Shown here piece after piece: positions 1 to 52,849 of a DNA stretch of 55,741 nt. Every line of letters begins with the position of its first letter. The first letter of the stretch is position 1. Where the stretch lies: IMG/VR virus record IMGVR_UViG_3300043473_000044, positions 1 through 55,741 of that record; one strand, 5' to 3'. The stretch is from a virus. Lineage: Duplodnaviria; Caudoviricetes. The notes beneath the pieces are model-generated. The model searched no databases. It saw only the letters and a program-made list of their open reading frames with translations, and was not told where the DNA came from. The translations under genes and the position numbers were made by a program.

Positions 1-127
1 TAGACGGGCGCTTCTGTCGTAGTTGGCGTTCCTGCTGCGGATGTTTCTGTTGAGGTAGTGGTGCCCGTTTCTGTTGTCGTTTCGGTTCCGGTGGCTTCTG
101 CTGTTCCCGCAGGGTCCCCCGTCGTTT
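1..127. repeat. Terminal overlap, identical to 55615-55741 (circular assembly overlap)
   Basis: Exact 127-nt match of the two ends; 127 is a common assembler k-mer; it lies inside an ORF that reads through the junction. Confidence 0.95.
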
Positions 128-152
128 CGGGTGCTGCGTTTTCGTCTGACAT
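1..152 (-). CDS. Capsid scaffolding protein, 5' part (continues across the junction to 54843)
   Basis: ATG at 152 preceded by TAGGAG RBS; MSDENAAPETTGDPAG... stays in frame with the 54843-55523 ORF once the overlap is collapsed (about 307 aa in total). Confidence 0.8.
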   Translation of the reverse strand, partial: MSDENAAPETTGDPAGTAEATGTETTTETGTTTSTETSAAGTPTTTEAPV

Positions 153-182
153 TTAATGCTCCTAGTAGTTATGGAATCGGGT

Positions 183-431
183 TTACTCTACGACGTGCCA
201 ATCGTCTGTCAGCATATCTGTTTGGCTGGCCAACCAAGGAACCCGCGCTCCGGGGGTGTTGGCAGAATCAGAAGGATAGTTAATGTAGATGTAAGGCAAA
301 GTCATCTTGCTATTAGCATCTGGAACCTGAAGTTCGAGCCATAAACCCTTACCGTTCCAACCGCTACGTTGGACTTTATTTCCTTTACGCAGTGATGCAA
401 GCGCGCCTCCAAACGATAAATCTGTAGTCAT
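183..431 (-). CDS. tad2: DUF2829 / Tad2-like anti-defence sponge protein
   Basis: F.GAL..L..G.KV.R.GWNGKG.W ... VPWLASQTDML.DDW signature of DUF2829. Confidence 0.85.
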   Translation of the reverse strand: MTTDLSFGGALASLRKGNKVQRSGWNGKGLWLELQVPDANSKMTLPYIYINYPSDSANTPGARVPWLASQTDMLTDDWHVVE

Positions 432-440
432 TTAATGCTC

Positions 441-542
441 CTAGTAGTTATAAATCAGTCTTAAAATAAAATAAAGTTCTACGGCTTTACACACCAGCAC
501 GATCGTCGTGCCGATAAGCATCCCGGTCAGAAAGTAGCCCAA
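441..542 (-). CDS. Possible small membrane peptide (33 aa, LGYFLTGMLIGTTIVLVCKAVELYFILRLIYNY)
   Basis: Hand-translated; hydrophobic and fills the gap between two genes; weak TTG start. Confidence 0.3.
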   Translation of the reverse strand: MGYFLTGMLIGTTIVLVCKAVELYFILRLIYNY

Positions 543-547
543 ATTTT

Positions 548-736
548 TCAGTTCAGTTCTACTACCTTCAATACGGTTTCAGGAAACTCGCCTACCCGGA
601 GGATGCCCTCGGATATCCAGAGGCACTGGATCGTTCGGCAGTCCTCGCCCATGAAGTGCTTCCGCGCTTGCTGCACGGTCATTAGTTGATCGGAAGATGG
701 AAGCTTTACAACGGTACCCGGTTTGAATTCAGGCAT
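548..736 (-). CDS. DUF2158 / YodC-like small protein
   Basis: FKPG.VV.L.S....MTV...C.W......F.E..L pattern; AAGGAG RBS before ATG at 736. Confidence 0.7.
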   Translation of the reverse strand: MPEFKPGTVVKLPSSDQLMTVQQARKHFMGEDCRTIQCLWISEGILRVGEFPETVLKVVELN

Positions 737-855
737 TTTAATCTCCTTAAATTTATGCCGGATTTGGTAGATTAAAAGGCGCTCCGGCGGCGCCACTTAT
801 AGTCCCAACGGCCGGTTTTACGAAAGCCGTCGGCCACATCTACCAGATGGTTCAT

Positions 856-1140
856 TTATGACTGTTTGTTCTCCTTGAATTTCATCAAATTTAACTTCAG
901 CATCTTCACGATTTGCAAGCCCACGAAGCGGCGACCGCTCACGAAGGCGTGATCCCGAGCATCGCTCCGGTATTCAAGATCATAGGTGCCAGCAGCGTGG
1001 TTGATGACCCAATCGAGCGCGCGCTTCTGTTGATCAGAGTCCGCTGCTCCTGCTGCCAGTGCTTGCATCGCTGCGATATCCGGTAGTTCATACGGCGCCG
1101 GGTTACACGCTGGCGGTTCTACGAATTTCTTTGGGGCCAT
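856..1140 (-). CDS. Conserved podophage head-module protein (Bbp19-like)
   Basis: Position between portal and scaffold; HAF..GRR.VGL.I motif. Confidence 0.55.
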   Translation of the reverse strand: MAPKKFVEPPACNPAPYELPDIAAMQALAAGAADSDQQKRALDWVINHAAGTYDLEYRSDARDHAFVSGRRFVGLQIVKMLKLNLMKFKENKQS

Positions 1141-1265
1141 AAAGATAGTGCTAAAATATTATTGCTCCAGATGTGTGATGGATTTCTCTGAGATTCTATC
1201 GCCGTTGATAAAGAGTTTTTGAACCTCCCTCTTAATCAACGCCCCGTCTGGGGCACCTTCCACCT

Positions 1266-1676
1266 TTAGCTTACAACTTTCCAATCTTCTGCTAACAGAT
1301 CGGCTTTAGTGAGCGTCCATGTAGCATCATTCATGGCTAAGTGCTTACTAGCTGCCCATCCTGCACGGGCGACCTTCTTGCCCTTGCGTACCGCTTCAAC
1401 AGCCAAGCCAAAACTGAGGCCGTCTGTACGATGGTAAGCCTTCACGAACTGCGCTTTGGACAGCCAGCTAACATAGCCTTCATACCCCGGAAGATTTGGG
1501 GCATAACCTATGTGTACGACAAGAAAACCTTCATCGTCGCCGTCTTCACCCGCTGGCAAAGTTGTACCCGCGAGATCGTGAAACTCTCCACGGGTCAGTA
1601 CCTTGGCTTTTATCAGCTTAGTTCCGATGTAGTTAGCTAATTCATGGTCATTGCAAGTTTTTGTTGCTGTATTCAT
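1266..1676 (-). CDS. Two-domain protein: YIGTK N-terminal domain fused to DUF2829/Tad2
   Basis: YIGTK..KA ... YVSW..K..F.KAY followed by GLSFGLAVEAVRKGKKVARAGW ... DLLAEDW. Confidence 0.75.
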   Translation of the reverse strand: MNTATKTCNDHELANYIGTKLIKAKVLTRGEFHDLAGTTLPAGEDGDDEGFLVVHIGYAPNLPGYEGYVSWLSKAQFVKAYHRTDGLSFGLAVEAVRKGKKVARAGWAASKHLAMNDATWTLTKADLLAEDWKVVS

Positions 1677-1697
1677 CTTTACTGCTCCTTTTAGTTA

Positions 1698-3341
1698 TCA
1701 CACAACAGCTTGCGCTTGTGTTGGTTGCTGCGCCTGTGCCTCGGCCATGGTCTTAGCGATGTCGCTGCCTTGTTGCATTTGGTCAAGTAATTGCGCAGTT
1801 TGTTGCTGTTGCTGCTGTTGTTGCTCGATCGCAGCAACATCATTCTCGGAACGCATCCACTTGGATGGCGTCCCGATACTTTGAAGCACGTCGCGGAAGG
1901 CGATCTTGACGTCGATGATCGCGGAGGCCGATGGGTCGATCGCAACCGCCTCGGCCATCATGCTCTTGGCCTCAAGGAAGCGTTGACCTTTCTGTCTCTC
2001 GGTCGCGTCGTGCAGCGGTGATTCGAAGGCGAACTCATATCCCATGCCCTGAAGTTCACGCGGCATATCCATAGGTGATCCGAAGGCTCCGGCGCGCAGC
2101 ATGAGCGAAAACGTGTTCTCGCAGATCGGTGCGTTGTACTCGGCCTCCATCGGCTCGAACAGCGGCATTGCTTGCCGGATGTACTCCTGTACGCGCTGGC
2201 CAACTTCGTATGCAGTCATCTCGCGCTCCGACGGGGGCATGGACAGCTTATTGAGGAAAAAACACTCAGCGATCATCTGCTGAGTGTCCCGCGCCATGTC
2301 GCGCCCTAGAGGGATTCCCCGGGTGTCCTGAGTCAGAGGGCGCAGGACTTCGCCCATGCGCTCGTCGTACTCAGAATCGACCCATGTCACGCCACCAGCG
2401 TAGATGCTGATATCCGACCGCAGGGCTTCCTGCACTGCAATCATCGGGGGATTGGTAGCCTTCTCCCCGGCCTCAAGCAGGACGCGCGTCATCGCCTGTA
2501 TCAGCCGGGCGTCAGGCAATGCTGCGACCGTGGAGGGCGAGTAGGCGTACTGTGAACCGGACACGGTTTGCCAGCGCGGTATGACGTACTCCATGGTGAA
2601 GATGCCGACTTGCTCCATGATGTGCTTGTTATCCACGTCGATGTAGTACGACTTGAACGGTGTACGGGAAGGTCTGCCGTCGGGCATGTAATCGGACGGC
2701 ACGATGCAGTGCCACACGTTAAATTCGCAGAACGGATCGCTCTCAAGCTTGTCTGTGACGCTTTGGTGTACCTTGCCGGGGAACAAGATAGAGAGTTCGC
2801 GCGCCGTGGGTTTCCATTTCCGGTACACGGTATCCACCATGCCCTCGTCATTTTCGCGCCATGCCACATCGCGCAGGTGCCAGCAACGATATAATAGGCC
2901 GTCTGCGTTTTTGTTGAGCGATGTCTGAATGACGGCTTGGCCAAAGGTGGCGAAGTCATGGTCGGCTTCTTTGGTAGCGCGTGTAAACTGCGCCCGTCTG
3001 TTGTACATCGCTCTTTTTTGAACGCTTGACGCCCATTCGAGCCACGCCCGGGCTTCAGTTCCCAAGTTCTCCCAATTCTGTGAAGTTCGCAGCCTGAACC
3101 ACTCCTTGCTGGTAGGCCGCAACATGGAGCCTAGCGCGTTGCCGAGATCGCGTCGTGCAAGCAGGGGGTAGCTGGTCGTCAGATGGTCAGCGAATTCCTG
3201 CCCAACATTGCGGATCGTCGTGAAATCCGCGCGCTCGGGATAGAAGTTGTCGGCAATTTCTTGCCACAATGAGAGCAGGGACGATCTGCTATCAAACAAC
3301 TTGCCCCCCTGCTTCAGGTGGAATTCGATGGTGTCCTGCAT
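1698..3341 (-). CDS. Portal (head-tail connector) protein, T7/BPP-1 type
   Basis: 547 aa; WQEIADNFYPERADF, PRW...SG..Y..SP, MTA.EV..R motifs; Gln-rich C-terminus. Confidence 0.92.
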   Translation of the reverse strand: MQDTIEFHLKQGGKLFDSRSSLLSLWQEIADNFYPERADFTTIRNVGQEFADHLTTSYPLLARRDLGNALGSMLRPTSKEWFRLRTSQNWENLGTEARAWLEWASSVQKRAMYNRRAQFTRATKEADHDFATFGQAVIQTSLNKNADGLLYRCWHLRDVAWRENDEGMVDTVYRKWKPTARELSILFPGKVHQSVTDKLESDPFCEFNVWHCIVPSDYMPDGRPSRTPFKSYYIDVDNKHIMEQVGIFTMEYVIPRWQTVSGSQYAYSPSTVAALPDARLIQAMTRVLLEAGEKATNPPMIAVQEALRSDISIYAGGVTWVDSEYDERMGEVLRPLTQDTRGIPLGRDMARDTQQMIAECFFLNKLSMPPSEREMTAYEVGQRVQEYIRQAMPLFEPMEAEYNAPICENTFSLMLRAGAFGSPMDMPRELQGMGYEFAFESPLHDATERQKGQRFLEAKSMMAEAVAIDPSASAIIDVKIAFRDVLQSIGTPSKWMRSENDVAAIEQQQQQQQQTAQLLDQMQQGSDIAKTMAEAQAQQPTQAQAVV

Positions 3342-3342
3342 G

Positions 3343-3729
3343 CTATCCTCCTAATAAGGTGCTCGGAGCAGTCTTAGGTTTCCGTTGGTCACGCAGCCTT
3401 TGCAAACCCGCTTCATCAAAATCCACAATAGAGCCGCCTATGGGTGCGTAAGTGAACCCGCCGTAATCGTTTGGCATCTTCTGGACTTTAGTAGGGTCTT
3501 CATCTTTAGCGATAAAGCCAAACTCCTGCAGCAATTTAACATCCTCGTAAGGATCAGGCGCTTCAGTTTGCGTCGGGGCGTTCGGGTCTGTTGGCTCCAC
3601 GCCTGTTTCCTCAAACAGCTTCTGTGCATTTACGCGCCGGGCGCGTTCCACCCCCGCCTCGTAAGTGCTGCCGAGGGTCGGATCGTTGGGGCTTAATAAC
3701 GTCGTCGGTTTTTTCGGTGTCGTTGCCAT
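3343..3729 (-). CDS. Hypothetical protein
   Basis: 128-aa ORF coupled in the late operon; ends TLLGG. Confidence 0.6.
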   Translation of the reverse strand: MATTPKKPTTLLSPNDPTLGSTYEAGVERARRVNAQKLFEETGVEPTDPNAPTQTEAPDPYEDVKLLQEFGFIAKDEDPTKVQKMPNDYGGFTYAPIGGSIVDFDEAGLQRLRDQRKPKTAPSTLLGG

Positions 3730-3730
3730 C

Positions 3731-4015
3731 TTAATATCCTCCCCCCAAGCTATCAGAAGGTCCCCTGTCCTCGGTCAGGATCGTACTTTCCCGGCCTTGC
3801 CGTTGCGTTTGACGCAGCAACGATCTCCGGCGCGCCTCCTCGACCGACTTGGTATCGATAGTCGGCATGACGGCCTTCACCGGCTCAAGCTTGGGTTCTT
3901 CAATAGCCGCTGGTTCTGGCAACGCCGCTGGTTCTCTTGGAGATTTGGACATGGCCTTGCTGATTATGGCTCCGGTCGCTGCGGCAGCGACGGCTGCTAC
4001 GACTGCTGGTGGCAT
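3731..4015 (-). CDS. Small virion-associated protein upstream of portal
   Basis: Ala-rich N-terminus and RQGRESTILT...LG C-terminus typical of podophage pre-portal genes. Confidence 0.6.
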   Translation of the reverse strand: MPPAVVAAVAAAATGAIISKAMSKSPREPAALPEPAAIEEPKLEPVKAVMPTIDTKSVEEARRRSLLRQTQRQGRESTILTEDRGPSDSLGGGY

Positions 4016-4476
4016 TTTGATATCCTTTTTTGATAAATTATTGAGATCGGTTCATACCCCAAGAACTCCAGCAAGTGACCCAACTTCATGTCCTTCAGGT
4101 TCGTATGGTTAAAAACCAAGTGTATCCCCATTACTGCAAAGTGTTCCTCTGCGAGTCGAATCAGCCGGGTGCCGACCATGCCTCCACGATACTCTGGTCT
4201 GACATAGAACACGTCCTGCGTCGCTTGCCATTCGTCTACGCAATGCACTCCTTGATGGATAAAGACCGCCGAGTACCCGATCATCTTGTCGTTCTGTTCA
4301 GTATCCCGCGCGGTGAAGATCATCAAACCGCCGTTGGCGTCAGCGTTCCGATACAGTTCGTAATTGACGTTCAGCGGTGTGCCCGGGGAGTGCGTCAGTT
4401 CCCTCCAGTGAGCTTCCAGCATAGGACTCATCTCATCCAGCACACTTTCAAACGCCTCGCTTTGATACGTTATCAT
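3997..4476 (-). CDS. GNAT-family acetyltransferase-like protein
   Basis: DVFYVRPEYRGG.VG.RLI acetyl-CoA motif A; LGYEP. Confidence 0.8.
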   Translation of the reverse strand: MITYQSEAFESVLDEMSPMLEAHWRELTHSPGTPLNVNYELYRNADANGGLMIFTARDTEQNDKMIGYSAVFIHQGVHCVDEWQATQDVFYVRPEYRGGMVGTRLIRLAEEHFAVMGIHLVFNHTNLKDMKLGHLLEFLGYEPISIIYQKRISKCHQQS

Positions 4477-6050
4477 CTGTGCCTCCGTGCAAGCGCCCCC
4501 CGGCCCATTATCACTTGTGGCGTCATTCTACCGCCTTTGACGTTCTTCCACTCCCCGCCAGCAAGCTGTTCCACCTTGTAACCATCCCACCACGCCATGA
4601 CTACGGCATCTCCCCGATCGGGAGATCGATTGAGGCGCTTGCACACATCCTCCTTGCTCTCTAGCCGGATGCCTCTGGACGTCACCTCGTAACGCGGCGC
4701 ACAAAGGTCGGACACCAGTTCGGGATCGATGGGCAATATGATGTTGGAGCCTTGTGGCTGCGATGGGTCGAGCGCTTCGCGAAAGCGCCAGTACGCCTCG
4801 GTGCGCACGTTGAAAAACGCCAGTTGCCGGTCGCGTGTGCGCCGGGACGAGGACTTGATCCCCATGTAGGCCACGCAGTCGATGCCGTTCGCTTTCATGT
4901 GCGCGTAGGCCTCGCCACCCCATCCGCCGCCGATATCCACCACAACGCGGCACTCATCACGCCGGTTGGTCACGACCTGCCCCGCAACGCTTGGCCCATC
5001 CTTGGTCTGAGCGCCGGGGATGACAAGAAGCGGCGCGTACCAGCCGTCGTACCTTGTCGCCAGCACGGTGTTGTCGTTACCGCCCTGCGCCACGTCGACC
5101 CCGATGCAGCACATCGGTACCCCGTAGGGCGGATTCTTCGTCCAGCGCGCTTGCGCTTCGAGCACCCACGCCGAGGGGAGCGCTTGCATAGGCTCATCAC
5201 GCAGCCCCACGCCGAAATCACCGTCGCGATAAGCGAGGCGCAAGTCTTCAGGGAGGCCAGCTAAGGCGGCAGCGTAGTTAGTGGCTGAAAGATCAGGGTT
5301 ATCGGACAGTTTTGAGGGTATAAACGTGCGTGATCGCGCAAAGACCTTTTCTCCGTTTATAATGTGCGGTCCGCGACCGTCAACCTCAATCTCCTTCCCT
5401 TCCTCGCCGGTCGTGTACCAGCGAAGTTCTCCGGGGCGTGCGGGGTTGGCATGGCGCGGATCAAGCCATGCACCCCACCTCTTTACCACCCATAGACCTT
5501 CAGGACGCGTTGGCGGGTTCCCTGCTGCCACAATACGGCACCGTTGTCTTGGGTCAGCGCTCCGGTTCCATGCGTTGATGAACACATATTGAGTCTCGGT
5601 GAAGTCGCTCACCTCATCGAACGCGATCAAACTGTGCGGGTTCCCCTTGTATCGTTGCTTATCCGACTCTAACTGGCATCCACCGATGTCGATAATGCGA
5701 TCGGTGCCCGGTACCCGCCATGTGCCTTTCTGCGAGTTATACCCGTCGCGGGAGCCTAGAATCTCACCTATCCGGTCGGCAAGGCCGTCGGCCTCCTTAT
5801 TGGTTCGCCGCAGGATCAGGGAGCGATCGTGCTCGTTTATGGCCAGCCCGATCTCGAGATCGGACTTGCCGCCCCCGGCCTGTCCGCCGAAGAAAATCTC
5901 ATCGGCCTCGGAGAAGTACGCCGCAGTCTGAGGTCCCGGATTCGGCACCCACTTCATGTGGGCGGTCGCGTTCATCGCAAGCTGCTCGATCTCCTGACGG
6001 GATCGGGCGTCCTTAGTGTCCAGTGTTCGGATCAGTTCCTCGACGCGCAT
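4473..6050 (-). CDS. terL: Terminase large subunit
   Basis: Walker A GGQAGGGKS, Walker B LIAFDE, coupling motif AGNP, nuclease IGVDVA.GG.D and SPDRGDA. Confidence 0.93.
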   Translation of the reverse strand: MRVEELIRTLDTKDARSRQEIEQLAMNATAHMKWVPNPGPQTAAYFSEADEIFFGGQAGGGKSDLEIGLAINEHDRSLILRRTNKEADGLADRIGEILGSRDGYNSQKGTWRVPGTDRIIDIGGCQLESDKQRYKGNPHSLIAFDEVSDFTETQYVFINAWNRSADPRQRCRIVAAGNPPTRPEGLWVVKRWGAWLDPRHANPARPGELRWYTTGEEGKEIEVDGRGPHIINGEKVFARSRTFIPSKLSDNPDLSATNYAAALAGLPEDLRLAYRDGDFGVGLRDEPMQALPSAWVLEAQARWTKNPPYGVPMCCIGVDVAQGGNDNTVLATRYDGWYAPLLVIPGAQTKDGPSVAGQVVTNRRDECRVVVDIGGGWGGEAYAHMKANGIDCVAYMGIKSSSRRTRDRQLAFFNVRTEAYWRFREALDPSQPQGSNIILPIDPELVSDLCAPRYEVTSRGIRLESKEDVCKRLNRSPDRGDAVVMAWWDGYKVEQLAGGEWKNVKGGRMTPQVIMGRGALARRHR

Positions 6051-6051
6051 C

Positions 6052-7617
6052 TTAACGCCCCACTCCCATTAACATGCGCTTCCGGTCCCCGGCGGACGAT
6101 ATGCCGGTCAATTGAAGCAGCCGCGCGGTGAACTTGAAGTTCGCCGTGGTCAGCAAGATGATCACCGGCTCGGCAACGGGATTGACCTCGGTAGGATCAA
6201 AGTCAAACGTGGTCGCATCCAGCGTCACCTTCACGAAGGACGTCGTCCCGGTAGGTGCCGGGATGAAGTCGAAGTGCGCCACATCGAGCGAGACTGTCGT
6301 CTTGATTCCCAGCGGGTTCGGTACAAAGTTAAATACCCCCGGGATGAGATCAAGCACCGTTCCCGGTGGCCTGTTCTTCGCGTCGATGGGCAGCGTGGTG
6401 AACTCAAGACCGTCCGCTTCCACGTCCAGCGTGATCGTCTTCGCCGCGCTTACCTCTGCCCCGGAGAAGTTGAACTCAGCGGGATCAAGTGCGATCTGCT
6501 GGCCGATGAACATGCTCTGGCCAACGAAGTCGAAGGTCGCGGCATCGAGCGCGGGTCCGGCGACGAGATCGAGATCGGAAGTGAAAAAGTCGAAGGAGGT
6601 AGATTCCAGTTCGACCAGTGTAGCCATCTCGATGTCGTTGGCCACGAAGTCCATGGTTGTAGAATCAAGGCTCCACAACTCTCCAACGCTTATCGCAGCG
6701 CTTGGAAGGAAATTGAAGTCCGCAGTGCCGAGAGTGTTGCGAATTGCAAACTGGATACTTGGCCGACCAAAGTCAAAGATCGATACCTGAAACGATAGCT
6801 TCCTCAGTAACTGGATCGTGGTCGGCGTCAGTTTCAGGAGCGGAGGGCTGAACGTCATCGCGACTTTCGGCGCGATCGCGTTGGCCACGCCCGTCATCTT
6901 GAAGTCAGCGGGGGTCAAGTCCAGAACGAAGGGCACCGGCGCGGTATCGAACTCCACGCTGACGACCGTCCCGGTCATGGTTATGCCCGGCCATGCGATC
7001 GCCGTGGTTCCGGGGGTGTTGGCGTCCTTACTTACTACGCTGTCGTAAACCGTCGGCGTGTTGTATACGCTCGCAAACAGCATCGTAAACCCGGCAGGGG
7101 CGGTAGAGGGGTTCGCGTTGACCGTGTTCGCGAACAGCGACATTAATATTGGATTCGCCGCTAACCGGGCACTGTCCCACACTCCTGAATTAGCTCCACC
7201 CCCTGACGCCGGGACGTTAATCTTGAATTGTTTTACCGCTGCAAGACCTGCTCTCGACATCCCGGTTATCTTCAGGATGAGCATCCCCCCTCCGGTATCT
7301 ACCGGCGAGACAGGAGCGGGAGCCGTATATGTTGTCTGTACTGCTACTCCGAGGAGGGCGTTCCGCACATAGATAGCTTGCGAAACAATCCCCCCGGTGG
7401 ACATGGTCGCGATAGCGCCGATCAGGGAGTAAGTACCTAATCCGTCAGGGTTGTTATCAAACGGGCTATCCCACGCAGCGGTACCGGAGTGGTCAACAAC
7501 GATCGCTACCAGATCACCAACAGCGGGTTGCGGTCCCGACAACGCTGGGGTAAAAACCTTGTCCCCGGCGTTGGTGTTGAAGACCCGACTGTTTGCGTAA
7601 ACTACTATCGCCGCCAT
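6052..7617 (-). CDS. Putative virion fibre/appendage protein with about 13 beta-repeats
   Basis: N-terminal beta-sandwich-like region, then about 21-aa repeats L(D).A.F(D)F; ends RKRMLMGVGR. Confidence 0.6.
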   Translation of the reverse strand: MAAIVVYANSRVFNTNAGDKVFTPALSGPQPAVGDLVAIVVDHSGTAAWDSPFDNNPDGLGTYSLIGAIATMSTGGIVSQAIYVRNALLGVAVQTTYTAPAPVSPVDTGGGMLILKITGMSRAGLAAVKQFKINVPASGGGANSGVWDSARLAANPILMSLFANTVNANPSTAPAGFTMLFASVYNTPTVYDSVVSKDANTPGTTAIAWPGITMTGTVVSVEFDTAPVPFVLDLTPADFKMTGVANAIAPKVAMTFSPPLLKLTPTTIQLLRKLSFQVSIFDFGRPSIQFAIRNTLGTADFNFLPSAAISVGELWSLDSTTMDFVANDIEMATLVELESTSFDFFTSDLDLVAGPALDAATFDFVGQSMFIGQQIALDPAEFNFSGAEVSAAKTITLDVEADGLEFTTLPIDAKNRPPGTVLDLIPGVFNFVPNPLGIKTTVSLDVAHFDFIPAPTGTTSFVKVTLDATTFDFDPTEVNPVAEPVIILLTTANFKFTARLLQLTGISSAGDRKRMLMGVGR

Positions 7618-7618
7618 G

Positions 7619-7855
7619 TCAGCCCCCCAATCCTGTCAGGGCACGACGCGATCCAGTGACAAGGCTCTGCACGGGGAACAACAGCCTCCCGCGCAGGGTG
7701 AAGCTGGCCGTGCCAAGGGTCACTTTGGCGGCTGTGGATATTGCCGGGACTACAAGGTTGAACGTCGCCGGATCAGCGTCCACGACGTTCTCTCCCGGAG
7801 TCAGTCCGGCCTCCGTCGAGAAGCCGAGGGCGGCGGTAATTAACTCGACGATCAT
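7619..7855 (-). CDS. Short paralog of the fibre-repeat protein
   Basis: Two repeats (DADPATFNL, TLGTASFTL) and C-terminal RRALTGLGG. Confidence 0.55.
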   Translation of the reverse strand: MIVELITAALGFSTEAGLTPGENVVDADPATFNLVVPAISTAAKVTLGTASFTLRGRLLFPVQSLVTGSRRALTGLGG

Positions 7856-7870
7856 GCCGCCTCCTTGGAA

Positions 7871-8332
7871 TTATCTGCTGCTGGTGTAGATACCGGATGC
7901 GCTGAAGGCTACGCTGAAATCGGACGCGACGTTACCGAGGTCGGCACCGAAGTCGTTCGAGAACCCGACGAGCCGGGACGATGCCTGTGCGCCGGTGTCG
8001 TAGTACAGGATCGCCCGTCGCCCGTTGGCGAACCCGGCAGCGTTCTGTACCCACGTCGCGGGATCGGAGGCGTCAAACGTCAGCACACCGGCGGTCGGTC
8101 CCGTCCACGTCGGTGCCGCGCAAACGTTACCGCCAGCCGTGTACCCGGTGCCCACAACTTCGTTCGTCGCCGGTACCAAGTCGTCGTAGAAATCCCACGC
8201 GCCCTGCTCGGATGAACCGATAGTCATCGCCTTGAAGATCGCCAGCTTCAGCGTTCCGGCGATCGCCGCAGCACGGGCAGGATCAGCTACCGCTTTTCTC
8301 CAGTTGTCGAACAGGTTAAATGCTGTTGCCAT
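7871..8332 (-). CDS. Conserved phage structural protein (fibre adaptor-like)
   Basis: NEV.GTGYTAGG ... TFDA.DP.W ... DFG ... F.ASGI family pattern; AAGGAG RBS. Confidence 0.65.
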   Translation of the reverse strand: MATAFNLFDNWRKAVADPARAAAIAGTLKLAIFKAMTIGSSEQGAWDFYDDLVPATNEVVGTGYTAGGNVCAAPTWTGPTAGVLTFDASDPATWVQNAAGFANGRRAILYYDTGAQASSRLVGFSNDFGADLGNVASDFSVAFSASGIYTSSR

Positions 8333-8360
8333 GTCGTTTCTCCTTTAAAGAAAGTGTTAT

Positions 8361-8765
8361 TTAGTGTCTGTGCTTGTCGTGGCCATGACCATGGCCATGA
8401 CCGTGATCACGGTAGTGTTGTCGTTCGTAGTACCGCCTGTAGTAAACCTGACAGGACGGATGTTCCCGGTAAATCCATCCGCAATGTGGAGGCTGCGGGA
8501 ACGGAGGATAAGGTTGTGGATAAACAATCTGCGGGTAGAGAACTTGTGGCTGCGGTTGTACATAGACCGGCGGACGCCCGGTGGCTATGGCGACGGAAGT
8601 GCCATAAGGCCCCGTGCTGAAGTCTATCTGAGGCTGAGGCCGGTTCTGTTCATGCGCCTCGACCTGCCTCCCGAAGAAGACCGCATATAGAAAGATCGCG
8701 GCTGAGGCCAGCACGATGAGCCAGTAAAGCCACCACCAGTTCTGCTTCATTAGGGCATTACGCAC
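8361..8765 (-). CDS. Membrane-anchored Pro/Gln/His-rich protein
   Basis: N-terminal hydrophobic helix WWWLYWLIVLASAAIFLYAVFF; QPQP and HGHG low-complexity tracts. Confidence 0.55.
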   Translation of the reverse strand: MRNALMKQNWWWLYWLIVLASAAIFLYAVFFGRQVEAHEQNRPQPQIDFSTGPYGTSVAIATGRPPVYVQPQPQVLYPQIVYPQPYPPFPQPPHCGWIYREHPSCQVYYRRYYERQHYRDHGHGHGHGHDKHRH

Positions 8766-10677: not shown

Positions 10678-11556
10678 TTACTCCGTGGACTCAACGGCGT
10701 CAACCACCTCCGGTGCCTGTTGCAACACAAACGCGACCCGCCGGGCGATCTCCGTGGGCGACATCTGCACCTCCATCTGGATCGGCGCCCCATCCTTCCC
10801 CGTGACTTCAACACGCTGCGTCTGATTAAACAGCCCCAAGTATTCACCGAGTTGCTGCAGCGCCTTCAACTTGTTACTGAGCTTGTACTTCACGCGCGTC
10901 ACCGTGGACACGTCGTTGAACTCAGTCTCCTCCATATCCAGACTATCGACGGCGGCAGCGACGTTGCGCGGCAAGAGATGCAACGGGATGTACCTGCCGG
11001 TTTCCGGGTTGATTAGTGCGCGGGGGTCAAACAGGGCGATATGGGCGATCTCCCGTACCACATTCAACATATTAATGCCCTCGTTGTGCAAAATATCAGC
11101 CCAATGGCTCTCAATGGTGTCCCGTATGCGGGGATTGGACATCAAGGCGACGCCGAGATCAGACGGATTTTGGGGGTACCCGGCGATGAGAGCAGCCTCC
11201 TGCGTTGACATCCCTTTTAAGATGCTCTTTATAAACAGCTTCTCCTGTTGTTTAAGCTGTTGGGGGGTCAAATAATCAGGGGAGTTGTAGTGGGAGTCAG
11301 TGCGGATAAAAGGCAGGGGCGAGTGTGGTGAAGGGTCAAATCCGCTGGGTTTTGGGGGATTTGTGGGGATATAGGGCGTTCTTCGGGCTGATTTTGGGTG
11401 TTTTGTGGGTTTTTGTGGGGGTTCTGCTGGTTTTTCGGGTTGGATGGGGGAAGATTGAGAATTCTTCCCCAATTTGGCTTGTCTGGAGGAGGTGTTTGGA
11501 ATCTCTAATCGGGATTCCGACCCGGGATTCGCGACCTTGCGGTTTGTGTGTATCAC
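10678..11556 (-). CDS. terS: Terminase small subunit with long disordered N-terminus
   Basis: LT......F......TQ.AA..AGY HTH, IA.FDPR, KLKAL.QLG.YLGLF and VEVTGKDGAPIQ; GTG start with AAGGAG. Confidence 0.85.
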   Translation of the reverse strand: MIHTNRKVANPGSESRLEIPNTSSRQAKLGKNSQSSPIQPEKPAEPPQKPTKHPKSARRTPYIPTNPPKPSGFDPSPHSPLPFIRTDSHYNSPDYLTPQQLKQQEKLFIKSILKGMSTQEAALIAGYPQNPSDLGVALMSNPRIRDTIESHWADILHNEGINMLNVVREIAHIALFDPRALINPETGRYIPLHLLPRNVAAAVDSLDMEETEFNDVSTVTRVKYKLSNKLKALQQLGEYLGLFNQTQRVEVTGKDGAPIQMEVQMSPTEIARRVAFVLQQAPEVVDAVESTE

Positions 11557-36415: not shown

Positions 36416-36606
36416 TGGCTGACCATGCGGATATAACAGGGGAGAGGGTAGAGCTAACGAATACCGTAGCGGTCGCTGCGGTCAGGGCTGCTGCTGCGAA
36501 GATGCCGAAAGGGGAGGAGGGGGAGTGCCCCCTCTGCGGTGAGCACTCCTTGAGGATCGTAAGGGGTGCTTGCCCTCCCTGTAGGGACAAGCACAAACTG
36601 CCTTAA
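36415..36606 (+). CDS. TraR/DksA C4 zinc-finger-like protein
   Basis: MAD.AD N-terminal helix plus CPLC ... CPPC. Confidence 0.65.
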   Translation: MADHADITGERVELTNTVAVAAVRAAAAKMPKGEEGECPLCGEHSLRIVRGACPPCRDKHKLP

Positions 36607-36884
36607 TCTTTAGGTTCGCTTTCGTCTTCCACAACGTAGTAGTCGTGAGCGAGGATCACGTCCGCCGTAAATGTTATCGGCAAAGAGAGAACAGTCTCTG
36701 CTGGCCAAGAGTGTCGTTTACCGTCGGGCGTTATCCGAACAACGTGTGCCTGAGCGCCTGTCTCGGGCACCTCCGCCACGAATTCCAGATATCCATAATC
36801 TTCATCCCACGCGCGCCGGGCGACATGCTTGCCCTCGCGTAATGAGTCCATTGCTCCTGCGAATGTTCCTTTAAAGATACCCAT
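36603..36884 (-). CDS. Divergent DUF2829/Tad2-like protein
   Basis: TF.GAM..LREGK.VAR.AW ... D.ILA.DY.VV. Confidence 0.65.
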   Translation of the reverse strand: MGIFKGTFAGAMDSLREGKHVARRAWDEDYGYLEFVAEVPETGAQAHVVRITPDGKRHSWPAETVLSLPITFTADVILAHDYYVVEDESEPKD

Positions 36885-38690: not shown

Positions 38691-41600
38691 TTATTTCCGC
38701 TCTTTAGGTGGGCCAAACAGTATTCCTTCCATCGTGCCCGTGTCGTCCATGAAAGCCCCGGTGCCGACTATGGCGTTCTTGATCGGGGTACCGGGCAACC
38801 CGAGCAAGTAGCTTACGCCCATGATAGCGTTGCCCACGCTCTTTTCGTCGCCCTCATCTTTGTAGAGGTCTATACTGGATTTGATGCCGAGCCGCACCCC
38901 TTCTCCTGCTGATACAACCGGCGATAACTTCAAACCATAGGCAGCGAGATCAGGATCGAAACTGCGCCATGCGTAAGGCCCGATCTCACGCAGGAGCGGG
39001 ATGAAACTCATCTGATACAGCATAGCGTCAGTACCAAGGCGCTTGACCCAATCCTCCGGTTCTTCCTCCCCCGGATCACCGCGCAAGAGACTCAAAGCCA
39101 GATCATTCAATATCGCCGGTAGTATCACGATCATGGCCGTGGCCTTCATAAACGTCGTTATGGCCTTGATCTTCTCGCCTTCATTCCACCGTCGCTTGGA
39201 TATCGAACCCGCCCGAATCTGCTGGTTTAACTGAGAACTGGCAAAGCTGTAGAACATCGTCATTAGCTGGCGAAGCGGCCCCTCCTGCATTTGTGACACA
39301 TCCAGTTCACGCCCGGAACCTTGCGTCTGCCGAACAACGTGATCGGCAAATAATACCGCTTCGCCGTGGTTGTTCGCGTAGTCCCGCATACCTTTCTTGT
39401 ACGCCGCGTTCCATGCGACCGCGCTCATTACCTGATCGGTCTTACCCATCAACCACAACCAAGTAGACATGGCCGGCATCAAAGGCTCGTTGATGGTCAT
39501 CTTCTTCGCTTCCTCCTGCAAAGCACGGTCGTAACTCAAGTGCCGGTTGCGAAGGTAATGCGAACTCTCCACGGCGAAGCGGTATGCCGCAGGACCGAGG
39601 GGGCTTATCATCCGCATGGCCTCCAGCGCCGTAGACGCGATACCGACCCGTGATGCCAAGGGCGCCAAGTTGAGTATGTTCTGCATCGCTGGCCAAAAAC
39701 TAGACAGCAATACCACGACCGTGTTCTTGCGCGCTATGTTAAAGAAGCGCTCGTAAGGCGTGTTAGGTTGATGCGCGCGCGTGGCCACGCTCTCGATACG
39801 CCCGACAAGTGCTTGGTATTCTTTTTCCGATGACGCTCTCTTGATGACCGTCTGGATATCCGCGTCGTTCAGAAGTCTGTAGGTATCCGCCACGGCCTCC
39901 CGGAAGGCGATGTCGTGTATTGTTTCGCCCACGGTAGTAGCGAAGATGTCCATGGACAGCTTGGGCGGTTTGCTGCTGGTTTCTACCCGTGCGATGCTTG
40001 CTCCTTGCATTGTGCGAGGTGCTACCCCGCCCATCCCCCCAGTATCCCCGCTCAACATCTGTTGGATCGCACCCGCGCCCGTCGCAGCAACACCCCTCTC
40101 CGAGTCGTACTTCAGCTTGAAGTACCCGCCGGTCATAGCCCCGTTTCGGGTCTGGTACGGCAGCGCTTCTACCTTGGGCGCAGCCTTGCCTCGGGTACGC
40201 TCGTCCAGTGCAGATAGTTCAGGCCAGATATCCTTATCGAATATCTCCCATATCCCGTTCACAAGCGCAACGTCGCGCGCATCAAGGAGATCGATGATCT
40301 CGCGCTGTTTGACCTCGTTCCAGCCGTAAGCAGCCTCCATACGCTGACGGCCTTCAGGATTGCCGTGCAGGAGTGCTATGACAGTGACCTCCTCACGGGT
40401 CAACACTATCGGATTACTGTCGGCATCCCGGATATTAGCGGGGACGATGTTCACCCGGCTGAACGCCCGGCGGTCAAGCACATTGTAGGGTTTATAAAGT
40501 GCCTTCATCTTCTTGAACAGGCCGTCCATCCGGGTAGCCTTCCAATCAACTCTCTCATCCATGCGCTTGAACAGCATCTCATGTAGCGCCCCGAACTCAC
40601 CCCCTTCCAGTACGTTTATGATTGTCTCCATGTTCATCAACAGCGCACCGTATTCACTAATCCGCTTCGCAAACCCTGACTTCTGCGAACTGCTCTGGTA
40701 AGGCTCCTGCTTAATCGAACCGTTCGCATTGAATAGTTTCCCGTGGAACTGCCGGAGGCGCTGCAATACCGTCGCCTTGTCCTCCGCGAAGGTCTGGTTA
40801 CGGATCGCCATGTACTGCTCACGCTCTCGCCTTGCGAGGATGCCGATCGACTTAACGGCGTCCGTCAACTCCCTGAACTCCTCAATCGTGAGGGTTTCAT
40901 AATCCTGCGATATCTGTTCGCTGAGAATCCATGGTGCGACGGTAGGCGCGATGGCCGAGTTCTGGCCAGCCGTAGCCTGTATGTACGTCCCGAGATCGCG
41001 ACGGGGTGCGACTGCGGTCTGCGACGTCTGACGGCTCTTGACGCCGAAGCGTTCAAGCAGTGCGTTAAGTTGGATGAGGTGTTCCCCGCCCATGGCCTTC
41101 TGCGCGGAGGGACGCGCCATGGCCTTCATGCGCACGATGTCGTTCTCGACCTCCTCCTGAGCATGTATGGCTTCCTTGTAGAGCGCGTTGTTGATTATCG
41201 CTGTCCGTTGCGCGCGGATTGCCCGTGCGGAGTCTGAAGCTGCGTACTTCAGTGCTTCCTTATTCGCCCGGGATTCTGCCGCTTCGTACTGTTTGGGGCG
41301 CAAGTCCTGCACCTTTACCTTGGCGATTGCATCCTGTGCTGCGATCTTCGCAGCCCTGATAATTTCCCGTACAGAGATGCCGCCGTGTCCGAGGATACTC
41401 AACCCTGTAGCGAGGAACCGTGTACGCGCTTCGTTCACTATGGCCGCGTTGACTGTCTCCTCGATCGCTTGGGCGTCGACCATCTCCCCATGGCGCTCTA
41501 ACATGCGCGCGTCGGTCAGGCCGTTGATCTTGGTCTGCGCGTCTTCCGCCGTGACGAGTTGCATGAATAGCTGCTGCGGCGTGTCGAAGCCGAACATGCT

Positions 41601-44600
41601 GGCCACCAAGTTCGGGTGTAAGCCGTCGGCGGCTACCATGTGCTTCATGTACGGCGGTATCTTCCCGTCGGGGGATATCTCCTTCATGGCGGCGGTGTTC
41701 AGCTTGAAGTTGTCGGCGCGGGTTACGGTGCCCGTAGCCGCATCGATCATCTCGCCAGTACGCAGGAAATGCCGCGCAAGATTGATCGGCTCGTTCATTA
41801 CCTCCTGCGTCACCTCTGCCCGGATTACGTCGCGCAAGGCTTTGGCTTCCGCTTGGATACGCTTCAATACCTTGCTCCGGGCGTTGGACAGCCACTTCAT
41901 GTCGCGCATGGCGCGGCGCTGTACCGTGTCCACGGCCTCTTGGGTCGCGGCCTCATCGAGCCGTAGATACTCCGCGTATTCGGCTTCTGTCATCCCGGCC
42001 TGTTCAGCCGTCTGGAAGATAGGCACATAGCCGCGCGCGGCCTCGGCCTCCGCAACCGCTTCCTCGCTTGCGATCAGGCGGGAGAAGACAGCGCGCACTT
42101 CGTTGTTCAGATTACCGGCCGCAGGATGGGACCGAAGGAACGCCTCCGCCGATTGGTAGACCCTCAACATCCAGTTCTTGAAGCGCACGAACACCGGCTG
42201 CATCTTGAGCGTCGGCGCTTTGCCCTCTAGCATCCACAACTCGAAGGACTCCGCAAACTGCTCATGGTGCGGGGTCTGTTCAGCGACGGACATCGAGTTC
42301 CATTGTTCAGCCGTCACCCCGAACCAATCCATGATCGCGTTGAAATCGTTGATTACTGTTTGCGGAGCATCTGGCCGGGCGGCGAGTTTCCCCATGACGT
42401 CGAGGTAGAAGTGCCCGCTCTCATGGATCACAGTGGACAGGTTCGCGCCCTCGAAGAAGGTCGTCATCATCCCGCTAGGATCATATCCTCCAAGAAGATC
42501 GCCCTGTTTAAGGATGTTTGAAGTAGTTATCTCAGCGTCAGGGTTAACGTCGAACCACCTTTGACCGTTGTTGTAGGCGTCGAACATCTCTTGTAACGAG
42601 AGTTCTTCCTTGCCCAACACGCCTTTCACCCCGGGCCTTATGAGGGTGTCGCCGTTAACTTGGGTAAGACGAGGGTTAAGTTCTAACTTACCTGAATCGC
42701 CCGTTACAGCGAAACCTTGGATCATCGAGAATAAAGACCGGCTGAAGGGCGTTGGTTGATTTTCGAAAACACCGGGGGCGACGAGTTCTTTTCCAGATAC
42801 GATCCATTTTTTACCGACTTTCCATTTACCCGGTTCGGCTTTCGTGCTCGGTAAAAACTGTCCGCCTTTATAGAAGTACCCATTTGACCCTGCGGTTTCC
42901 CCACCGACTTTTGCTTGTGTTCTATCATCTTGAGCAAACCCTTCACCCGTTTGCGCCGGTGCTGTCCCCGCTTCAGCTTGATAAGGGTACTGAGCGAACA
43001 TCTCTGCCGGAGACATTCCAAAGCGCTTAGACTGCACCGCGTAGAACTCTGAGAGCGGTATGGCATTGGCTCTAGCCGTGAACTTGTCGTACCTTCCGGT
43101 AGCAACTAGCTGGTCTGCGATCTCGTTGCGGATATCCCTCAGTTCGATCTCGCGCTGTTTCCGTGAGTCCTGCTTCGCTGCGGCGACCGCTGCCTGTTCC
43201 TTGAACGTCTGGAAGAAAACCTCGGACTCGATGAACGTCATGCCTTCCGGCGTGATTCTGGAGTTGTTCAGTATCGAATCGAGAACCTCGGGCGTCCTGA
43301 CGTTGGCGATCAGATCGCCGGTCGTGATCCGAATAGAGCCGCCTTCGTTCAAAGGGTCGTTCATCTGCGCGAAAACATCCGGCATGGTCTTCGCCAGTTC
43401 TTCCTTGTTCACGCCCGATTGGTTGAATATCTCCCCCAAGGTTTCAGTATCGACGTACACCTCGGCCATCTTCCCGTCCTCGGTCATCAAGTCGATGAAG
43501 TTCTGGAAAGCTTGGGGCGACCGGGAAAGGATCGCGTTGTCCGCTGAAGCGCTCACGATCGCCTCCAGCGTCGCACGGTCCTGCTGCGCCTGATCCGCCT
43601 TCGAGACATTGCTGCCGAACGCCCCGGCCATAGGTCCCCCGACCACGGGACCGAGGATCGCGCCCTGCGCCGTGGCTTCAGCTACGTTCTCCGTGAGTGA
43701 TTGCGCCGGGTTTGCGTAAATCTTGGTCGCGACGTTTTCTTCAAACTGCTCGAAGCCGCTTTGGGGTGCTTCTACTCCGCCCTCGATCGCGCCACCCTTG
43801 AGCGCCCGGGGTAAGAGAGCGCCGCCCTCGCCTATGATCTTGCCCAAGAACCTACCGCCGACGCCAGCGATCGCACCGGTCGTGACCAGACTCATCAAGC
43901 CGGAAGCTTCACCAGCCCGACCCGCCGTGAGCGTTTTTGCAACCTCCGGGTCATACCCGAGCGCGATGTATTCCTGAAACTCCGGTGACTTGGCGATTCT
44001 GTCAAAAGCCATTTTCTCGATCTTGGATGCAACGCTGGTGGACTGCTGACCGTAGGCCACCAAGCCCTCACCTATCCCCGCGATCGCGGTACCCGCTTTA
44101 ACGGCAGCAGCGATGGCTAAATCCCGCGCCTCCGTTAATGTAGCCCCCTCAAGCAGCGCCTTTGTCCGTGCAGCGATCGCAGCGCCCCTTGTTGCCGCCC
44201 CCGCGACCATCAACATCAAGCTACTTGGCAGGGATTGGAAGACATCGCCCAACACTTTGACTCCGTCGAAGTACGCAGCCTTCCGGGGGTCGAGCGTAAA
44301 GTATTCGAGCGGAGCGGTTCTTGCCTTCATCTCCGGGTCCACGCCTTGCATGACTGCTTCGCCCTTCGCCTGTTGACTTCTGGCGATTTCCTCCAAGGGA
44401 TGAAGGGCGGCACGTATCCTCTCAAACTCAGCCTTATCCCCTTTGGTGATGATCGCGATCTGCTCATCGGATAGAACAGCGTCGCCGCCCATACCCACGA
44501 AGTTCAAAAGCATCGATGCGGTCTTGGTAGCTGCGGCGGCGATGTTGTGCCCTCCAGTTTCCAAGGTCTGACCGAAATACTTCATTATGTTGTAGTCCAC

Positions 44601-52546: not shown

Positions 52547-52849
52547 TTAGCACTTAGCGCGCTGCATTTCCGACTTGATGCGGTAGCCTTCCAGTTGCCA
52601 TATTTTTTCCACGGCGTCATCGAACGCTATCTGACGACCTACCTGTGCGTCGAAAGACTCCATGCTCAGACATGCGCTGTGCCCTACTACATGGAACCCG
52701 TTCTTCAGCGTTAAAAGGCATACCGTGACCGTTGTGCCCTCAAAGGTCCTGTAGTTATCGGTATCAATCTGCTCTAATATTTTCTCCCGCGTTAATTTCT
52801 CGGGAGGCCCACATTTTTCATCTACTTTCTTGTGTTTGCCATTAACCAT
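52547..52849 (-). CDS. N4 Gp49/Sf6 gp66 family protein (Acb4-like nucleotide sponge)
   Basis: T.TVC.L.LKNGF.V.G.SAC.S...FD...G..IA...A..KIW.LEGY signature. Confidence 0.85.
   Translation of the reverse strand: MVNGKHKKVDEKCGPPEKLTREKILEQIDTDNYRTFEGTTVTVCLLTLKNGFHVVGHSACLSMESFDAQVGRQIAFDDAVEKIWQLEGYRIKSEMQRAKC

Follow-up and report, generated by a model that had tools for sequence, protein, structure and literature searches.

Probable counter-defence cargo with two Tad2-family genes in two slots of the head-gene block of an uncultured soil podovirus

The stretch analyzed here, positions 183 to 1,676 of a 55,741-bp viral genome, carries two genes of the Tad2 (DUF2829) sponge family among the genes for the phage head. 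Sponge proteins are one of the main phage routes against signalling immunity (Thoeris, CBASS and Pycsar). The genome (hereafter the window) is an entire IMG/VR record and belongs to an uncultured soil podovirus; the record is classed as 100% complete, with direct terminal repeats. Bases 1-127 recur at the end of the record, which allows a circular reading of the genome. The genes of this finding are all on the minus strand, within one long same-strand block in which the small and large terminase genes are followed by a GNAT gene with two small genes, the portal gene, the stretch under study, a 308-codon putative scaffold gene and the capsid gene; after the capsid come tail tubular proteins A and B, internal virion proteins and a tail fibre, and the block ends with a 93-aa gene (p93). 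Between portal and scaffold we found the four genes p136, p94, p62 and p82 with three spacers (Table 1). Judged by sequence, p136, p62 and p82 appear to be accessory cargo wedged into the head-gene block. We consider it probable that the stretch holds accessory counter-defence cargo of a late structural operon, placed in two slots beside a Bbp19-like gene and made up of a canonical Tad2 (p82), a derived relative of it (p136) and p62, and that this cargo is part of a multi-sponge set.

Thirty-six loci around portal relatives were fetched, and 15 of them (L005-L019, portal match 47-82% identical) were compared with the window. A p94 homologue stood beside the portal gene in 14 relatives by tblastn and in L016 by the motifs of a 104-aa open reading frame (ORF). 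Five of 12 aligned members of the p94 family matched PF25181 (Bbp19-like) at E <= 0.1, the best at E 2.4e-05, and the window's own p94 scored 14.4 bits (cut-off 25). Because p94 is conserved in all 15 relatives, the stretch consists of two slots and not of the single anti-defence island proposed in the original prediction, which had omitted this gene. Slot A (portal/p94) contains p136 and spacer A, while slot B (p94/scaffold) contains spacer B, p62, spacer C and p82. The borders had been given earlier as portal and scaffold; PF12236 confirmed the portal, but the scaffold gene, which is kept between the p94 and capsid genes in relatives, is named from its position alone, as it had no Pfam match and phrog_3742 is without known function.

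In the four relatives with 81-82% portal identity (L005-L008), portal, p94 and scaffold were consecutive with gaps of about 5 nt, so that both slots were empty. Empty slots were found in 14 of the 15 relatives, and the remaining one, L018, had different cargo there. The slots of L018, the relative with 47% portal identity, are filled by a 114-aa gene (7685-8026) and a 94-aa gene (8301-8582), which belong to no Pfam family and are possible counter-defence candidates. PF11195, the Tad2 family, had no match in the records of five more distant relatives, two of which are complete. The G+C content was 0.49-0.51 in the first 2 kb of the window and 0.56-0.60 in the next 9 kb. Thus the junctions are empty in close relatives and the inserted DNA differs in composition from its flanks, which is the pattern of a moron or accessory insertion. 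A perfect 23-nt direct repeat precedes both p82 and the scaffold gene, and by our own rough estimate the chance of a 23-nt match within 2 kb is about 1e-8. Contigs of four soil/rhizosphere runs were also compared with positions 1-3400. One contig of 5206 nt (run X3) spanned the region in the form of L043, a second viral record (41 kb, 89% complete) that has the same gene order and 94.3% nucleotide identity over 6.2 kb; the contig differed from this L043-like form only in a 73-nt diverged stretch (308-382). No contig of the four runs bridged a missing cassette, and run X6 left p136, p62 and p82 uncovered, though this does not show that they are absent.

Table 1 Features of the cargo stretch and of the structural block, with divergence from L043
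Feature	Position (nt)	Strand	Description and matches	dS	dN/dS
p136	1266-1676	-	Slot A cargo, 136 aa; N-terminal domain (~11-86) and truncated Tad2-like domain (87-136); PF11195 in two stretches	0.013 (codons 1-107, 3 changes); 1.04 (codons 108-136)	0.10 (codons 108-136)
Spacer A	1141-1265	-	Non-coding, 125 nt, short GC hairpin; ~99% identical to L043; fold z-score -1.29		
p94	856-1140	-	Bbp19-like core head-module gene, 94 aa, not cargo; adjoins portal in 15/15 relatives	0.62	0.04
Spacer B	737-855	-	119 nt, terminator-like hairpin 778-794; ~99% identical to L043; fold z-score -1.13		
p62	548-736	-	First cargo gene of slot B, DUF2158/YodC-like, 62 aa; PF09926 sub-threshold; phrog_3261 E 1.2e-08	1.76	0.04
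Spacer C			116 nt, contains the 33-codon ORF; fold z-score -0.68		
33-codon ORF	441-542	-	TTG start, inside spacer C, -1 frame of p62; no Shine-Dalgarno sequence		
Direct repeat, upstream copy	429-451	-	23 nt, before p82; perfect, 100% identity; ribosome-binding site and start codon		
p82	183-431	-	Slot B cargo, second gene, 82 aa; canonical short Tad2 (sponge family); PF11195	1.17	0.07
Direct repeat, downstream copy	150-172	-	23 nt, before scaffold gene; perfect, 100% identity		
Putative scaffold gene	152 over record junction to 54843	-	308 codons; phrog_3742 E 1.8e-32	0.11	0.066
Capsid	53837-54670	-	PF19821 E 1.3e-26	0.18	0.044
p100	52547-52849	-	Acb4-family (anti-CBASS 4), 100 aa, between p166 and tail tubular protein A; PF13876		
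p93	36603-36884	-	Divergent Tad2-like, 93 aa, last gene of structural operon; PF11195 sub-threshold	0.32	0.044
Portal (head-to-tail connector)	1698-3341	-	Upstream border of slot A; PF12236 E 1.4e-67; phrog_332 E 3e-89	0.27	0.006
Terminase large subunit	4473-6050	-	phrog_2, phrog_979		
Terminase small subunit	10678-11556	-	PF03592		

Profile analysis showed that p82 matches PF11195 at E 1.4e-20 with 74.1 bits (cut-off 25) over positions 2-73 of the 73-position profile. It also matched solved Tad2 chains at E 7.7e-12 to 2e-08, including an end-to-end alignment with SPO1 Tad2 (8sme, E 5.9e-11). The identity was 65% to the closest cultured homologue, in Pseudomonas phage PaBG, and 40.9% to SPO1 gp34.65. 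In SPO1 Tad2, the main contacts to the signal gcADPR are reported to be W25, W73, N26 and D79, plus T78, I63 and T65, and water is coordinated by N26, D67, H71, W73, S76 and D79 (10.1101/2023.05.01.538930). The alignment placed W25, N26, W66, S69, T71 and D72 of p82 on W25, N26, W73, S76, T78 and D79 of SPO1 Tad2, which means that the gcADPR pocket is kept at these positions; at the others, T65 is matched by T59, I63 by A57 and D67 by G61, and H71 faces a gap. The kept residues also correspond to the W21/N22 and S90/T92/D93 sets of HgmTad2, in which the replacements W21A/N22A and S90A/T92A/D93A are described as lowering gcADPR binding (10.1101/2023.11.15.567273). Thus the prediction that the DUF2829-signature ORF at p82 encodes a Tad2-family protein was borne out.

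Compared with the known Tad2 proteins (SPO1 gp34.65, HgmTad2/AcrIIA7, SptTad2 and ModTad2), p82 is alike in size (82 aa vs 89 aa in SPO1), in covering the full profile and in having both pocket Trp residues with the Asn, Ser, Thr and Asp, and it differs in the absence of the SPO1 D67/H71 pair and in an insertion even shorter than that of SPO1. According to the HgmTad2 study, nearly all Tad2 proteins keep the gcADPR site, and cyclic dinucleotides bind in a long insertion between beta2 and beta5 (10.1101/2023.11.15.567273). Because the insertion of p82 is this short, only a gcADPR-type pocket would be expected, and not the cyclic-dinucleotide pocket of HgmTad2. Homologues of Tad2 can instead bind His-ADPR, N7-cADPR or cUMP/cCMP (10.1101/2025.08.24.671296), so that gcADPR is a candidate ligand of p82 and not an assigned one. 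p82 would most likely form a Tad2-type tetramer that sequesters a TIR-made, ADP-ribose-derived (gcADPR-type) Thoeris signal.

PDB chains deposited as AcrIIA7 were also matched by p82 (E 2.9e-11 and 3.3e-10), and some phage records label homologues 'anti-CRISPR protein', so the DUF2829 genes might be read as anti-CRISPR genes of the AcrIIA7 type. We regard this as hardly credible, since the sections available of the HgmTad2 study report that Cas9 inhibition by HgmTad2/AcrIIA7 or its homologues was not reproducible and that HgmTad2 is a sponge for gcADPR and cGG (10.1101/2023.11.15.567273).

The second DUF2829 gene, p136, is more interesting than a plain copy of Tad2. Its match to PF11195 (E 2.7e-08, 34.7 bits, cut-off 25) covered only profile positions 2-28 and 56-73, and the middle of the profile was absent. 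The family assignment made for this ORF in the original prediction thus holds for the two ends of the profile only, and what had been described as a second Tad2-like sponge is a fusion with a truncated Tad2 in which two pocket residues are lost. A homologue search gave 315 matches at E <= 0.001, typically of 160-165 aa; nearly all of the 120 homologues listed had 150-177 aa, and p136 and its 96%-identical twin were the shortest among them. In the alignment, the homologues have a 75-aa N-domain and then a complete Tad2 domain, and p136 and its twin read GWAAS where the family has GWNGKG. The pocket residues W107, W120 and D126 are kept in p136, but Asn is replaced by A108, Thr by A125 and Ser by T123, so that the gcADPR pocket is not conserved as a whole.

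Structure prediction with AlphaFold2 gave a model of p136 with a pLDDT (predicted local distance difference test) of 87.8. Residues 86-136 of this model were superposed on HgmTad2 (8kbi_A) with Z 8.4 and a root-mean-square deviation (rmsd) of 1.4 A over 51 residues, and on ModTad2 (9eib_A) with Z 8.2 and 1.7 A over 51 residues, which indicated that the core fold of Tad2 is present. These last 51 residues share with Tad2 the helix alpha1, the Trp loop and the C-terminal Trp/Asp segment; the beta2-to-beta3 part of Tad2 is missing. Prediction of a four-copy complex gave a score of 0.27 (mark 0.42), which speaks neither way.

The N-domain of p136 has no Pfam family, and Foldseek found no match to it in the PDB at E <= 0.001; VIA-align gave weak SH3/Tudor-like rows (DUF1653 3be3, Z 5.0) that are within the noise range. 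Sequence comparison was more informative. In P0133 (166 aa), a domain with 49% identity to that of p136 (BLASTP E 2e-18) is fused before PF21825/Sequestin (E 6.4e-19), and this domain is 52.9% identical (E 2e-12) to that of phage N4 gp49, a 160-aa protein consisting of the N-domain and PF11195 (E 8e-24). The N-domain of Pectobacterium phage CB1 gp68 ('RyR Tad') aligned to the family profile with an hhalign probability of 96.1% (E 3.5e-09, 65 columns). The gp68 domain is described, in the part of the source that is available, as a fold of unknown function that is often encoded alone, forms a domain-swapped dimer and has no anti-Thoeris activity by itself (10.64898/2026.06.04.730250). In a language-model protein atlas, a part with a like fold appeared joined to Tad2, to Sequestin, to Acb4 + Sequestin or to the Acb2/Tad1 hairpin, and also alone at 75-78 aa; we treat these as leads only.

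Some of the atlas clusters carried PF13876, and the N-domain was considered as Acb4 for that reason. This was rejected, because the PF13876 match of N4 sits in the adjacent gene, and p136 had no PF13876 match. Sequestin itself was discovered by treating domains fused to sponges as sponge candidates in their own right (10.1101/2025.07.12.664507); as the N-domain lacks a Pfam family, a Pfam-based search of that type would probably have missed it. Most likely p136 is a derived N4-gp49-like protein, in which a dimerising N-domain would precede a Tad2 domain that has been reduced to helix alpha1, the Trp loop and the C-terminal Trp/Asp segment. The protein resembles N4 gp49 and CB1 gp68 in its N-domain, which is homologous to both and is the domain fused to Sequestin in P0133. 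It differs from them in that the partner in gp68 is RyR-like and not Tad2, and in that its own Tad2 partner is truncated and its N-domain is off consensus at 14 of 42 conserved positions.

The synonymous divergence (dS) from L043 and the ratio of nonsynonymous to synonymous divergence (dN/dS) were obtained as Nei-Gojobori estimates (Table 1). The low dN/dS values indicated that the cargo genes are real and constrained. Divergence was distributed in a mosaic way: segments 430-560, 712-905 and 1100-1265 were 98-100% identical to L043, and the gene bodies between them were 75-88% identical. We read this alternation of diverged gene bodies with near-identical spacers as a sign that related phages with the same slots exchange alleles by recombination. 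The fold z-scores of the three spacers were not significant.

The most likely start of p62 is the ATG at 736, which is preceded by AAGGAG; the GTG start listed for it lies inside a hairpin. In the language-model atlas, YodC/DUF2158 came first for p62 (score 0.91, 197 shared features), and DUF2158 clusters made up 26 of 30 hits. p62 is nearly an orphan, with three matches at E <= 0.001 among 1.84 billion representatives. Among PDB sequences nothing was found at E <= 10, and cultured phages gave one weak match (E 0.01) in an unannotated Aeromonas phage module. We considered p62 and p82 as a split two-domain protein and dropped this, as the hhalign probability of p62 against the p136 family profile was 0.2%. 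As to the earlier label of a YodC/DUF2158-like ORF, p62 is a real, constrained gene that the atlas likens to DUF2158, but its PF09926 score stayed below the cut-off. A possible transmembrane peptide had also been proposed nearby. The 33-codon ORF does exist, but it showed no sign of translation; it has 1 change in 102 nt relative to L043, a level equal to that of the two ORF-free spacers, and is therefore probably non-coding and not a gene. A frameshift fusion of p62 with this ORF was likewise set aside: the -1 frame is open from 578, and no X_XXY_YYZ slippery site was seen on reading.

The proposal that the DUF2158 gene is an anti-defence candidate did not gain support beyond its surroundings, as only its neighbours link p62 to defence. 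It is nevertheless conceivable that p62 acts against defence in its own right, for instance as a small oligomer that binds a signal or a defence protein. p62 stands in slot B with the Tad2 gene in both phages in which the slot is filled, it is under strong purifying selection even at its high dS, and genes of unknown function beside sponge genes have a precedent in the anti-signalling factors Bes1 and Bes2 (10.64898/2026.06.04.730250, in the part available). But we think this unlikely: p62 has no family or structural link to known inhibitors and no PADLOC hit, its AlphaFold2 model from a four-row alignment is unusable (pLDDT 52.5), and DUF2158/YodC proteins are widespread in bacteria, plasmids and prophages (atlas taxa) without known function. 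The three matches found also mean that co-occurrence of p62 with sponges is not measurable. Thus p62 is a real, constrained gene of unassigned role that travels with the Tad2 gene. A literature search found no paper on DUF2158 function and found the N-domain of p136 named only in the description of gp68; the IMG/VR homologue lists of the sponge papers may already include p82, p100 or the p136 family.

Further sponge-family genes are present in the same operon. p100 matched PF13876 with 92 bits (cut-off 27, E 1.6e-27) over profile positions 1-81 of 82, which assigns it to the Acb4 family, and it matched SPO1 Acb4 (9e4w_A) at E 1.9e-05. Acb4 is described as a sponge for 3'3'-cGAMP and cUA (PMC11722364, available text), and p100 would accordingly be predicted to soak up CBASS cyclic dinucleotides. 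In all eight more distant relatives covering this junction the slot was empty, with p166 and tail tubular protein A abutting. The Acb4 allele of L043 in the same slot was only 52% identical, with neighbours at 93-95%. PF13876 was found in the record of one of five more distant relatives, at a different place. p100 is like SPO1 Acb4 in matching the full PF13876 profile and 9E4W, and SPO1 and N4 also carry Acb4 together with a Tad2-family gene (PMC11722364, available text). It differs in being a stand-alone gene flanked by structural genes, with the Tad2 gene about 3.5 kb away when counted over the record junction, and it is likened to Acb4 by sequence match, not by ligand contacts. In N4 (L050, EF056009 33632-34485), the Acb4-family gene and the N-domain-Tad2 gene gp49 are adjacent, beside the virion RNA polymerase gene. 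Although its name refers to 'N4 Gp49', PF13876 hits the EF056009 gene that is annotated as gp48.

The last gene of the operon, p93, scored 21.7 bits against PF11195, below the cut-off of 25, and matched PDB Tad2 chains only at E 0.14-0.28. It may, like p136, be a derived Tad2-like protein, and ligands would not be predictable for either. All three DUF2829-like genes are carried by L043 as well. The Acb2/Tad1 hairpin (PF24729) had no match in the genome; Sequestin (PF21825) had none either, but as the control also gave no match, this blank is weak. The pattern is thus one of single-gene slots through the late operon. We propose that p82, p136, p100 and p93 may be a multi-sponge set in one operon that would be transcribed with the virion genes and whose alleles would be exchanged between related phages by recombination.

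The cargo is presumably made together with the virion proteins, judging only by shared strand and spacing. A search upstream of the cargo gave no sigma-70-like promoter, and site counts were at or below the shuffled expectation. The only minus-strand promoter-like site (212-185) is inside the 3' end of the Tad2 gene. The arrangement resembles anti-defence hot spots or morons, for example the N4-like anti-signalling hot spot, in that slots hold sponge genes with unknown neighbours, their content varies (L018 has other cargo) and their G+C is lower. It differs in that the cargo is spread over three junctions of the structural operon and the operon end, not gathered in one replication-region cluster, and in that no promoter was recognised.

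Related genes occupy comparable places in other phages. Pseudomonas phage phiAH14a has a two-domain homologue (p64) between a head-morphogenesis gene and the genes preceding the capsid, Escherichia phage Kapi1 has one (Kapi1_043) between lysis genes and the small terminase, and Klebsiella phage IME346 has a one-domain DUF2829 gene between large terminase and portal. The recurrence of DUF2829 genes inside packaging or head modules, by portal, terminase and scaffold genes, in these phages and in the window would be explained if the proteins served head assembly or DNA packaging. We judge this very improbable, because relatives with an 81%-identical portal and the same scaffold and capsid genes have no DUF2829 genes, the SPO1 and N4 homologues lie in non-structural regions, and all family members tested in print act as signal sponges, so far as the accessible texts cover them.

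Several observations weigh against the reading of the stretch as counter-defence cargo. p82 is without the water-coordinating D67 and H71 of SPO1 Tad2. p62 reached only 17.4 bits against PF09926 (cut-off 22.3, E 0.0039, profile positions 3-48 of 50), and its homologues P0121 and P0122 only 18.0 and 18.3. The terminator-like hairpin (794-778) follows p94. SPO1 Tad2 dimerises through helix alpha2 and strand beta2, and its beta1-beta2 loop lies at the edge of the pocket. p136 and its twin lack beta2, alpha2 and beta3, that is, the whole beta2-to-beta3 insertion, and p136 has Ala at the positions of SPO1 N26 and T78. Of the 65 columns with at least 90% conservation among 60 homologues, p136 departs from the family at 20 (N-domain 14 of 42, Tad2 part 6 of 23); the median of the others was 1 and the next worst 9. 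The dN/dS of p136 codons 108-136 rests on 17 changes only. Sponges are expected to be early proteins (10.1101/2023.05.01.538930, available part), yet these genes sit in a late-looking operon, and 19 of 84 sponge homologues tested inhibited none of seven systems, according to the text available (10.1101/2025.08.24.671296).

For p136, these losses suggest an alternative, namely a decaying or repurposed remnant that is inert or acts otherwise, through its N-domain. Its Tad2 domain has lost parts needed for tetramer and pocket, and the pocket Asn and Thr are both replaced by Ala; the protein is an outlier at the conserved family positions and, with its twin, in length; and for CB1 gp68 the N-domain on its own showed no anti-Thoeris activity (10.64898/2026.06.04.730250). 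We hold this doubtful, though it is a more serious alternative than those considered above. Two phages carry p136 with an intact reading frame, its pocket retains the two Trp residues and the Asp, and the model is confident and superposes closely on Tad2 cores. The C-terminal 29 codons occur as two alleles with high dS and low dN/dS, and since these diverged alleles are equally short, the short form appears to be old and selected. p136 is thus predicted to be probably still functional, with an altered or unpredictable ligand specificity. A bolder version, which we offer as speculation of low probability, is that p136 would be a minimal sponge in which the domain-swapping N-domain supplies the dimer interface to a Tad2 core of about 50 residues, with a pocket re-tuned (Asn and Thr to Ala) for a signal not yet assigned to Tad2, and that the nearly invariant 116-125-nt spacers and the 23-nt repeat would act as recombination adaptors by which soil podoviruses exchange sponge alleles at fixed slots of the structural operon.

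Searches with the rest of the region gave little further information. PADLOC gave no hit on eight proteins, an Rfam scan of positions 1-2000 found nothing at E <= 1, and megablast of positions 1-6100 against cultured phages gave no match. The best cultured portal was only 29% identical, and no host or taxon was assignable from cultured phages. The public runs that contain window DNA are soil metagenomes, and no RNA run is listed among them. The GNAT acetyltransferase gene (3997-4476, minus strand; PF00583 E 5.8e-08), between terminase large and portal, was 100% identical in L043 and 40-44% in the relatives with 81% portal identity. Two very large proteins of the virion module, both on the minus strand, are probably ejected internal proteins: one of 2130 aa with an LPD22 domain (38691-45083) and one of 1173 aa with a C-terminal M23 peptidase (45083-48604). 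Among the relatives, L012 has a 102-aa gene with a signal-peptide-like start between scaffold and capsid (5286-5591). In L005 (2210-4750), the terminase-large match falls into two parts, residues 1-144 and 143-516, with about 1 kb between them, which suggests an intein, an intron or a homing-endonuclease insertion.

As sponge families, their fusions and hot spots are already in print, the strategy is known and this phage is a further example of it. What it adds is the placement of four sponge-family genes, one or two at each of several separate junctions of the structural operon, and not in an early-gene cluster. If these proteins are made late, together with virion proteins able to trigger such systems, this bears on the amount and timing of sponge that is needed. 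Comparison with the near relative indicates that the cargo, and not the backbone, recombines, with alleles that differ by dS above 1 or in 48% of residues inside a 94%-identical backbone. p62 is a weak but testable counter-defence candidate, and new ligand specificities may come to light from the truncated Tad2 and from the N-domain with its wide range of fusions.

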